Virus record (IMG/VR): IMGVR_UViG_3300033153_007310
DNA length: 17,786 nucleotides
Strand: one strand, 5' to 3'
Origin: a virus
Made by a program: the position numbers and the translations under genes. A model generated the notes under the pieces. The model saw nothing but the letters and a program-made list of their open reading frames with translations, ran no database searches and had not been told where the DNA came from. Shown piece after piece: positions 9,476 through 9,650 of this stretch (positions are counted from its first letter, which is position 1; the number at the start of each line of letters is the position of its first letter).

Positions 9476-9650
9476 GTTGTCCCACCTGTTGGTTGGTGTG
9501 GTTTTTGTGCAGCCATCTGCAGTTCCGTGGTTTAAATGGGACTGGTCCACACCGTAAAAGACGTTCGCCAGTCTCATTGCCTCCTTTGGGATAGATGTGG
9601 CCAAGGTCGGGTCCACGCCTTTAAATGTGAATTGCAACCCGACCATTAAC
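9476..9650 (+). promoter_or_regulatory. GC-rich structured non-coding element: candidate cis-regulatory leader or small RNA upstream of the nicotinamidase-like gene
   Basis: This is a 175-nt SD-less gap with roughly 50% GC against an AT-rich background. Nested helices are visible: GGTGTGG (9495-9501) with CCACACC (9547-9553); TGCAG (9507-9511) with CTGCA (9516-9520); GGTCGGGT (9605-9612) with ACCCGACC (9637-9644); GTGG (9597-9600) with CCAC (9613-9616). The motif TTTAAATG occurs twice, at 9531-9538 and 9620-9627. A weak -35/-10 candidate, TTGCAA at 9632-9637 with an AT-rich -10 17 bp downstream, sits at the 3' end. Confidence 0.35.

Follow-up and report, generated by a model that had tools for sequence, protein, structure and literature searches.

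What does a short, GC-rich and hairpin-forming stretch do between two tightly packed genes of an AT-rich phage? The question is raised by IMG/VR record IMGVR_UViG_3300033153_007310, a phage fragment of 17,786 nt (the whole stretch of DNA analysed, referred to below as the window). Here a non-coding spacer of 204 nt (9472-9675) separates the stop codon (9471) of an open reading frame (ORF) of 103 amino acids (aa) from the ATG (9676) of an isochorismatase/PncA-like, or nicotinamidase-like, gene. The original prediction for positions 9476-9650, the island within this spacer, was above all a riboswitch leader of the nicotinamide adenine dinucleotide (NAD) type for the nicotinamidase gene, with a small structured RNA or paired protein-binding sites as fallbacks. 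The feature is real but orphan. It contains two paralogous stem-loops that keep their pairing, it belongs to one phage lineage, and it is neither a recognizable NAD riboswitch nor a conserved leader. Tentatively, we read it as a plus-strand intercistronic or leader RNA module, made of a weak terminator and two hairpins for protein recognition or stability.

Twin stem-loops in a GC-rich spacer

The guanine-cytosine (GC) content is 47% for the whole spacer and 52% for 9475-9624, against 34.8% for the 17.8-kb window, close to the 50% first reported. The remaining spacers of at least 59 nt in the window have GC contents of only 24-39%. Two features of the spacer exceed chance: this composition, and a 21-nt direct repeat that forms both hairpins.

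9472-9675, plus strand: whole spacer, from the orphan 103-aa ORF to the isochorismatase/PncA-like gene (ORF list and sequence), without Pfam or PHROG support in any frame
9535-9578, plus strand: stem-loop 1, an 11-12 bp stem AAUGGGACUGG(U)/(G)CCAGUCUCAUU with a 20-22 nt loop opening with (U)CCACACC
9605-9644, plus strand: stem-loop 2, a perfect 8-bp stem GGUCGGGU/ACCCGACC with a 24-nt loop opening with CCACGCC; paralogue of stem-loop 1

The two copies of the repeat (9539-9559 and 9605-9625) lie 66 nt apart and are identical at 16 of 21 positions. Each supplies the 5' arm and the beginning of the loop of its own hairpin, in the same register. The arms of stem-loop 1, 11 bp long (AATGGGACTGG/CCAGTCTCATT, 9535-9545/9568-9578), had escaped the original prediction, while the 8-bp stem that it listed is present as stem-loop 2 (GGTCGGGT/ACCCGACC in DNA letters, 9605-9612/9637-9644). 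Both loops open with UCCAC(A/G)CC, cannot be aligned beyond this motif, and, apart from isolated pairs, have no predicted pairing. From stem-loop 1 to stem-loop 2 there are two double compensatory differences, an A-U pair becoming U-A and a U-A pair becoming G-C, and in addition one G-U pair becomes G-C; both stems stay fully paired. Among 3000 dinucleotide shuffles, 35 had a comparable repeat and none also had both copies as 8-bp in-register hairpin arms, a test that was devised post hoc, after the feature was seen, and that concerns two copies only. Read from the sequence in this way, the twin hairpins argue that pairing was maintained.

Of the two strands, the plus strand is the better folder. 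Once excised, stem-loop 1 reaches -18.7 kcal/mol (z=-4.2) on the plus strand and -14.1 kcal/mol on the minus strand, where its G-U pair would be C-A. The minimum free energy (MFE) of the whole gap is -62.2 kcal/mol on the plus strand (z=-1.94; 7 of 200 shuffles) and -53.8 kcal/mol on the minus strand (z=-1.03).

The spacer shows no coding signal. As had been predicted, the only long ORF across it is a minus-strand shadow without a Shine-Dalgarno (SD) sequence: it encodes 95 aa (9359-9646), overlaps the 103-aa gene in antisense, and has no Pfam match even at E<=10. Two short ORFs are present on the plus strand (37 aa, 9536-9649; 33 aa, 9493-9594). None of the short spacer ORFs has an SD, and Pfam and PHROG searches with them came back empty; the window's real genes have strong AAGGAG-type SD sites. 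Searched against 1.84 billion proteins, the 95-aa ORF matched P0123 (3236 aa) with an E of 7e-34, a match rejected as an artefact because the score sums 26 near-identical repeats, the best single pair being identical at 13 of 40 positions (28 bits). Comparing the island with ~117 related loci by tblastx revealed no coding remnant. The island was thus rightly described as non-coding, GC-rich and capable of several helices, but it is not the longest coding-free gap of the window, as had been stated: this is an AT-rich gap of 286 nt (2259-2544).

A lineage-specific block before a conserved cassette

The genes neighbouring the island are all on the plus strand, tightly packed, and equipped with strong SDs. 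At the left end of the window, a minus-strand tail-fibre-like ORF runs off, followed by a MucR/Ros-like gene. Then comes a long rightward block with an 853-aa gene related to the major vault protein (MVP; 4109-6670), an RNase H-like gene, RtcB (7653-8885), ORFs of 87 and 103 aa, and the spacer. Past the spacer the block continues with the isochorismatase/PncA-like gene (9676-10458), whose product has a DPQNDFC motif and an SHC cysteine, a 251-aa gene, PP2C, a kinase-like gene of 559 aa, and further genes, DNA ligase being the last. The 853-aa protein (4109-6670, plus strand) is phage-encoded and combines an MVP shoulder domain (Pfam, E 4e-22) with a Vault_3 repeat; the GC content of its gene is 0.44, compared to 0.35 for the window. 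The two small ORFs between RtcB and the island occupy 8888-9471 on the plus strand, and the 103-aa product has CxxC-type cysteines. No relative of either protein turned up among 5.8 billion proteins or in a peptide-pattern scan of IMG/VR, and their single-sequence AlphaFold models are of low confidence (predicted local distance difference test, pLDDT, 57-58).

GC-rich hairpins also lie at other gene junctions of the window (6692-6727, 11245-11272, 15047-15073 and 2441-2466). The one at 6692-6727, downstream of the MVP-like gene, is a canonical terminator (GGGTGGGG...CCCACCC followed by TTTTT). The further junction hairpins include GCTCCCC...GGGGAGC and the palindrome GGGAGGGTATAT/ATATACCCTCCC, and there is a minus-strand terminator within the 286-nt AT-rich gap.

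The nicotinamidase-like gene heads a cassette (9676-13781, plus strand) which also includes the 251-aa, PP2C and kinase-like genes. More than 100 large-phage contigs, the longest of 478 kb, keep the genes of this cassette in the same order, often together with a 359-aa protein. Related loci were fetched via this downstream gene, 33 from IMG/VR, 80 from metagenomes, and 9 from the closest proteins (70-71% identity); the cassette loci are L001-L033, L038-L117 and L291-L299. In ~130 loci with a nicotinamidase-like gene (42-71% aa identity), the island was found by none of blastn, nhmmer, tblastx and a covariance model. The original prediction had looked to covariation and conservation in homologous loci, and these ~130 loci offer neither. 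The regions upstream of the gene are heterogeneous among relatives, and several have a sigma-70-like promoter there, so the start of the cassette is commonly the boundary of a transcription unit.

The closest syntenic relatives, L291 and L292, come from the same sample series. In L291, RtcB is 63% and the nicotinamidase-like protein 70% identical to those of the window. The gene order in both is RNase H-like, RtcB, a 73-aa gene, a 162-aa DMP19-like gene, an AT-rich spacer of 37 nt, and the nicotinamidase-like gene; the MVP-like gene is absent from L291. The 73-aa and 162-aa genes of L291 have no homology with the 87-aa and 103-aa genes. DNA homology between the window and L291 stops at 8818, inside RtcB, and resumes at 9646, 1 nt past stem-loop 2. 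This break, together with the orphan small genes, places the island at the 3' end of a lineage-specific accessory block.

Other routes to relatives gave the same picture. Starting from RtcB, seven loci were obtained, all at <=50% identity, with no synteny and no similar element. Distantly related phage RtcB genes adjoin tRNAs, with 16 of them downstream of RtcB in L250 (7411-11053) and tRNA-Pro and tRNA-His directly upstream in L247 (3152-3303); the window has no tRNA. Five pattern scans of IMG/VR and two of GTDB genomes returned seed-only chance matches, mostly in GC-rich genomes. A pattern match in L307, from the same sample series, was discarded as a coincidence within a coding region. GenBank phages gave matches at E>=2 only. 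A hairpin descriptor (8-bp arm, CCACRCC, 3' arm) found only the window's own units in 2 Mb of related loci, and the best foreign match of a covariance model of 9531-9648 over 0.78 Mb had an E of 1.9. The only further copies of the island that were found are in the JGI contigs L034-L037. They are uninformative on constraint because they are 100% identical in the island and nearly identical elsewhere. The window differs from these contigs by in-frame indels, with 27 extra nt on their side in the PP2C gene (11361/11362) and 39 in the gene for the 359-aa protein (14679/14680); L037 lacks 161 nt (window 4082-4242) across the start of the MVP-like gene.

A candidate RNA module and its rivals

To weigh what the island may do, the remaining elements of the spacer have to be considered.

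9481-9509, plus strand: weak terminator-like hairpin CCCACC/GGUG(U)GG (9481-9501) followed by UUUUUGUG (9502-9509), from MFE folds
9495-9501, plus strand: GGUGUGG, also the 3' arm of the terminator-like hairpin, from inverted repeats and duplex energies
9508-9521, plus strand: small hairpin UGCAG-CCAU-CUGCA, from the fold of 9505-9600
9531-9538, plus strand: TTTAAATG box 1, overlapping the base of stem-loop 1, from the sequence
9544-9553, plus strand: box GGTCCACACC, copy 1 of GGTCCACRCC (exact)
9581-9587, plus strand: CUCCUUU, a possible anti-SD, from an inverted repeat with the SD
9610-9619, plus strand: box GGTCCACGCC, copy 2 of GGTCCACRCC (exact)
9620-9627, plus strand: TTTAAATG box 2, inside loop 2, from the sequence
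9662-9678, plus strand: SD AAAGGAG (9662-9668) and ATG (9676-9678) of the isochorismatase/PncA-like gene, from the sequence; DNA homology with L291 resumes upstream, at 9646

The terminator-like hairpin begins 9 nt past the upstream stop codon and consists of a 6-bp stem with a bulge, followed by U5 (9481-9506). A simple consensus terminator scan did not call the 9481-9501 hairpin because the stem is bulged. The U-run behind it exists on the plus strand only, and stem-loops 1 and 2 have none. Its 3' arm, GGUGUGG, may also pair with CCACACC in loop 1 (7 bp, -11.1 kcal/mol) or with CCACGCC in loop 2 (one G-U, -10.7 kcal/mol). The first of these helices (GGTGTGG/CCACACC, 9495-9501/9547-9553) had been listed among several mutually compatible ones. 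It does exist as a 7-bp helix, but its 3' arm is within the loop of the 11-bp stem-loop 1, so the two could coexist only as a pseudoknot; a fold forced to hold it is 2.9 kcal/mol above the MFE.

If active, the island would work as plus-strand RNA within the extended rightward transcription unit. Between RtcB and the conserved cassette lies a hypervariable accessory block, made of the 87-aa ORF, the 103-aa ORF and, as its final element, the island. Going from 5' to 3', the weak terminator-like hairpin and its U-run would attenuate read-through from the RtcB block just past the upstream stop. The two paralogous stem-loops would then present their shared UCCAC(A/G)CC on the 5' side of large loops, where they may be recognized by an RNA-binding protein or act as processing or stability hairpins. 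Finally, the short AT-rich stretch would provide the ribosome-binding site. The outcome would be a set level or half-life of the downstream cassette mRNA, or else a stable RNA fragment of ~110-170 nt left behind. Consistent with such a module, the island is the only GC-rich spacer, its better-folding strand is also the one with the U-run, and its twin hairpins keep their pairing. Other junctions of the same phage carry GC-rich hairpins, relatives have promoters at the cassette start, and homology to L291 resumes 1 nt past stem-loop 2.

Several points weigh against this module. Transcription of the island is something we infer. Folding of the whole gap is only marginally better than that of shuffles, and the best local hairpin, of 52 nt, is equalled or beaten in 49 of 300 gap shuffles, which is not significant; since a hairpin as good arises so often, thermodynamics alone is insufficient to establish structure. 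Several alternative folds lie within 3-5 kcal/mol of the MFE, and the terminator-like hairpin is weak (-7.7 kcal/mol, z=-1.1) and bulged. No homologue was found in the searches described above, hence there is no cross-species covariation, and the argument from paralogy concerns two copies and was formulated after inspection of the sequence. Lastly, no candidate binding protein was found, and the two adjacent orphan proteins model poorly.

Hairpin elements are known from phage mRNAs, for example the RNase III sites of T7, the translational operators of T4 gene 32 and gene 43, and the nut/boxB sites of lambda. The island resembles such intercistronic hairpins, moron terminators and leader operators: its GC-rich stem-loops lie on the plus strand between packed genes at an accessory-block boundary, they are repeated with a common loop motif, and a terminator-like hairpin comes right after the last gene of the block. 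However, neither in sequence nor in structure does the island match any of these elements, and it has no known cognate protein. Its loops of 20-24 nt are much larger than those of boxB or typical terminators, and its stems are too short for a classical RNase III substrate.

The strongest of the other explanations, though on balance somewhat unlikely, is that the island is an inert passenger, a recently acquired or decaying GC-rich fragment (gene or tRNA-like remnant, or insertion scar) whose hairpins have no function. The island and both flanking small ORFs are orphans across the 5.8 billion proteins and all the DNA collections searched, the island is missing from the closest syntenic relative, and the thermodynamic signal is near chance. 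Decayed tRNA genes are conceivable because phage RtcB genes often adjoin tRNA arrays (16 tRNAs in L250, two in L247). Yet the hairpins keep perfect pairing despite diverged loops, and where the phage has 35% GC, a GC-rich stretch under no selection would be expected to erode if not very recent. There is no protein similarity in any frame, the P0123 match being a repeat artefact. Tests for a remnant were negative as well, whether by tblastx (~117 loci), with ARAGORN (no tRNA or tmRNA genes in the window), or with the Rfam tRNA model (no match at E<=10).

An element acting at the DNA level is less likely still. Here the GGTCCAC(A/G)CC boxes would bind a phage or host DNA-binding protein, as an operator, iteron or the like, at the cassette boundary. 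The two exact copies of this 10-mer in the window are both within the island, 66 bp apart; with one mismatch allowed, at least three matches were reached in 3 of 200 shuffles. A degenerate copy, GTTCCGTGG, lies 22 bp upstream of the first box, inverted CCAC cores are found at 9498, 9527 and 9597, and both CCAC and GTGG occur three times in the 204 nt. The 22- and 66-bp spacings are close to whole helical turns. Iteron and operator arrays are comparable in having GC-rich 10-bp GGTCCACRCC boxes in an AT-rich genome at about whole-turn spacing, and the core occurs in tandem in L263, an unrelated phage contig of 28% GC, in which a spacer (10525-10624) holds 5.3 tandem 19-bp repeats TACCGGTCCAC(A/G)CCTTAAC. 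Repeat arrays with the same core are also present in L258, L271, L276 and L289. However, L263 and the other array contigs were retrieved by searching for exactly this 10-mer twice, so that they are selected matches and may be coincidence, and L263 shares no protein with the window. In addition, the two exact copies of the island are not in tandem, and each is in a hairpin with co-varying arms, whereas a pure DNA site does not predict complementary changes in the 3' arms. No initiator, repressor or other cognate binding protein was identified, and a motif scan of 8800-10000 found no sigma-70-like promoter for the boxes to control.

A second box, TTTAAATG, was the one originally described as duplicated about 90 nt apart. 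The duplication is there (9531 and 9620, 89 nt), but with six occurrences in the window against 2.9 expected, a number reached in 15 of 200 shuffles, the box is not enriched alone. At its second copy, CCTTTAAAT is similar to CCCTTTAAATAAC, found upstream of the homologous gene in L294-L296. In L294 (858), L295 (5967), L296 (1695) and L298, the nicotinamidase-like gene is preceded by a related motif, TTTTAAACCCTTTAA(A/G)T, which comes after the upstream stop codon and before the SD. It is similar to GCCTTTAAATG in loop 2 (9617-9627), and the other loci do not generally share it. We therefore did not retain the idea of a conserved promoter-like motif ahead of the cassette, CCCTTTAAATAAC being limited to the L294-L298 group. 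A CRISPR mini-array, which would have near-identical direct repeats of 28-37 nt on either side of a unique spacer, was also rejected: the repeat here is 21 nt long with 76% identity, and a tandem-repeat finder returned nothing at this position.

An independent small RNA gene is a decidedly improbable alternative. The island would yield, directly or by processing, a structured RNA of ~110-170 nt acting in trans, for instance as partner, substrate or decoy of the adjacent RNA-repair proteins (RtcB, RNase H-like) or of the MVP-like protein. In an AT-rich phage genome, a GC-rich island is typically a stable RNA. In Salmonella, Y-like RNAs belong to the rsr-yrlBA-rtcBA operon, and eukaryotic vaults carry vault RNAs. 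The island follows RtcB at a distance of 0.6 kb and the gene for the MVP-shoulder/Vault-repeat protein at 2.8 kb, and like the latter gene it is present in this phage and absent from its nearest relative, L291. Against this, there is no promoter-like site and no clear bounding terminator. Rfam 15 was scanned with cmscan, at gathering score for the whole window and at E<=10 for slices of 451 and 216 nt, as the original prediction had suggested, and no family was found, be it Y RNA, vault RNA, tRNA or any other; the slices gave noise only (fragments of snoRNAs, lncRNAs and leaders, E 1.5-7). RtcB-linked non-coding RNAs (YrlA, YrlB, tRNA arrays) share with the island a GC-rich non-coding stretch at most 0.6 kb from RtcB, but the island has no tRNA-like module and was not found at other RtcB genes. 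A Y RNA (YrlA/YrlB) was rejected: no TROVE domain was detected among the 20 ORFs scanned, and since no Ro60/TROVE gene accompanies RtcB, this RNA would have no partner. The more specific proposal of a new lineage-restricted structured RNA, with two homologous stem-loop modules serving as ligand, scaffold or decoy for RtcB or the MVP-like protein, has only a slim chance of being correct; if true, it would make the island a phage counterpart of vault or Y-type ribonucleoproteins.

A metabolite-sensing leader, whether a known or a new class of riboswitch for NAD+, nicotinamide mononucleotide or nicotinamide, has even less chance. The nadA and pnuC motif families are both in Rfam 15, and neither was matched in the slices at E<=10. 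The nadA motif (NAD+-I riboswitch) has two similar tandem domains with a near-identical ACANCCCC bulge in each, a P1a helix above the bulge, an AGYG internal loop and a P1b helix in domain 1, and a ribosome-binding site in the 3' shoulder of the P1' helix of domain 2 (PMC6859854). The island echoes this architecture, and only the architecture, with two tandem similar stem-loops upstream of an NAD-salvage-type gene and, immediately above each basal stem on its 5' side, a short motif rich in C and A, UCCAC(A/G)CC being placed like the ACANCCCC bulge (PMC6859854). But ACANCCCC itself is absent from 9472-9675 even with one mismatch allowed, the corresponding sequences being UCCACACC and UCCACGCC. 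There is no P1a helix above the motif, no P1b, and no placeable AGYG internal loop. The SD (9662-9668) lies 18 nt downstream of the 3' arm of stem-loop 2 (9637-9644), thus outside the 3' shoulder of a second domain. The pnuC motif (NAD+-II) is a compact element of ~60 nt directly upstream of the start codon, with P1, P1a and a pseudoknot that sequesters the ribosome-binding site (PMC7749635). It was rejected too: the AT-rich 30 nt that precede the ATG fold into no more than a weak local SD hairpin (-4.8 kcal/mol, z=-0.4). CUCCUUU could pair with the SD, but the ensemble does not favour this long-range helix (CUCCUUU:AAAGGAG), the SD being paired there with nearby 9653-9660, and forcing the helix into the fold costs 4.5 kcal/mol relative to the MFE. 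NAD+ riboswitches are known with nadA or pnuC in Acidobacteria or Streptococcus, and not with pncA in phages (PMC6859854, PMC7749635). A conserved cis-regulatory leader of the nicotinamidase-like gene was likewise rejected, the ~130 homologous loci, nearest relative included, having nothing similar upstream of the same gene. On the Rfam result, the missing ACANCCCC, the homologous loci and the position of the SD, the lead idea of the original prediction fails, while its two fallbacks stay among the rivals discussed above. Weakest of all is a translated small protein, for which open frames of 37, 33 or 95 aa exist, but without SD or any Pfam or PHROG match, with a repeat-protein artefact as the sole result of the library search, and with the minus-strand frame antisense to the 103-aa gene.

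Meaning for the phage lineage

As the evidence stands, the main value of this analysis is negative, in that an NAD riboswitch and a conserved leader are discounted; the island should therefore not be made the founder of a riboswitch family. We regard it as a modest curiosity of one phage lineage rather than a conserved regulator. Should the twin stem-loops prove functional, however, they would constitute a compact cis-acting RNA module that arose anew in a hypervariable region of the phage. Such a module would control a cassette (nicotinamidase-like, PP2C and kinase-like genes) that is conserved in more than 100 large phages. Paralogous hairpins within a single sequence could then stand in for the cross-species covariation of an orphan element.

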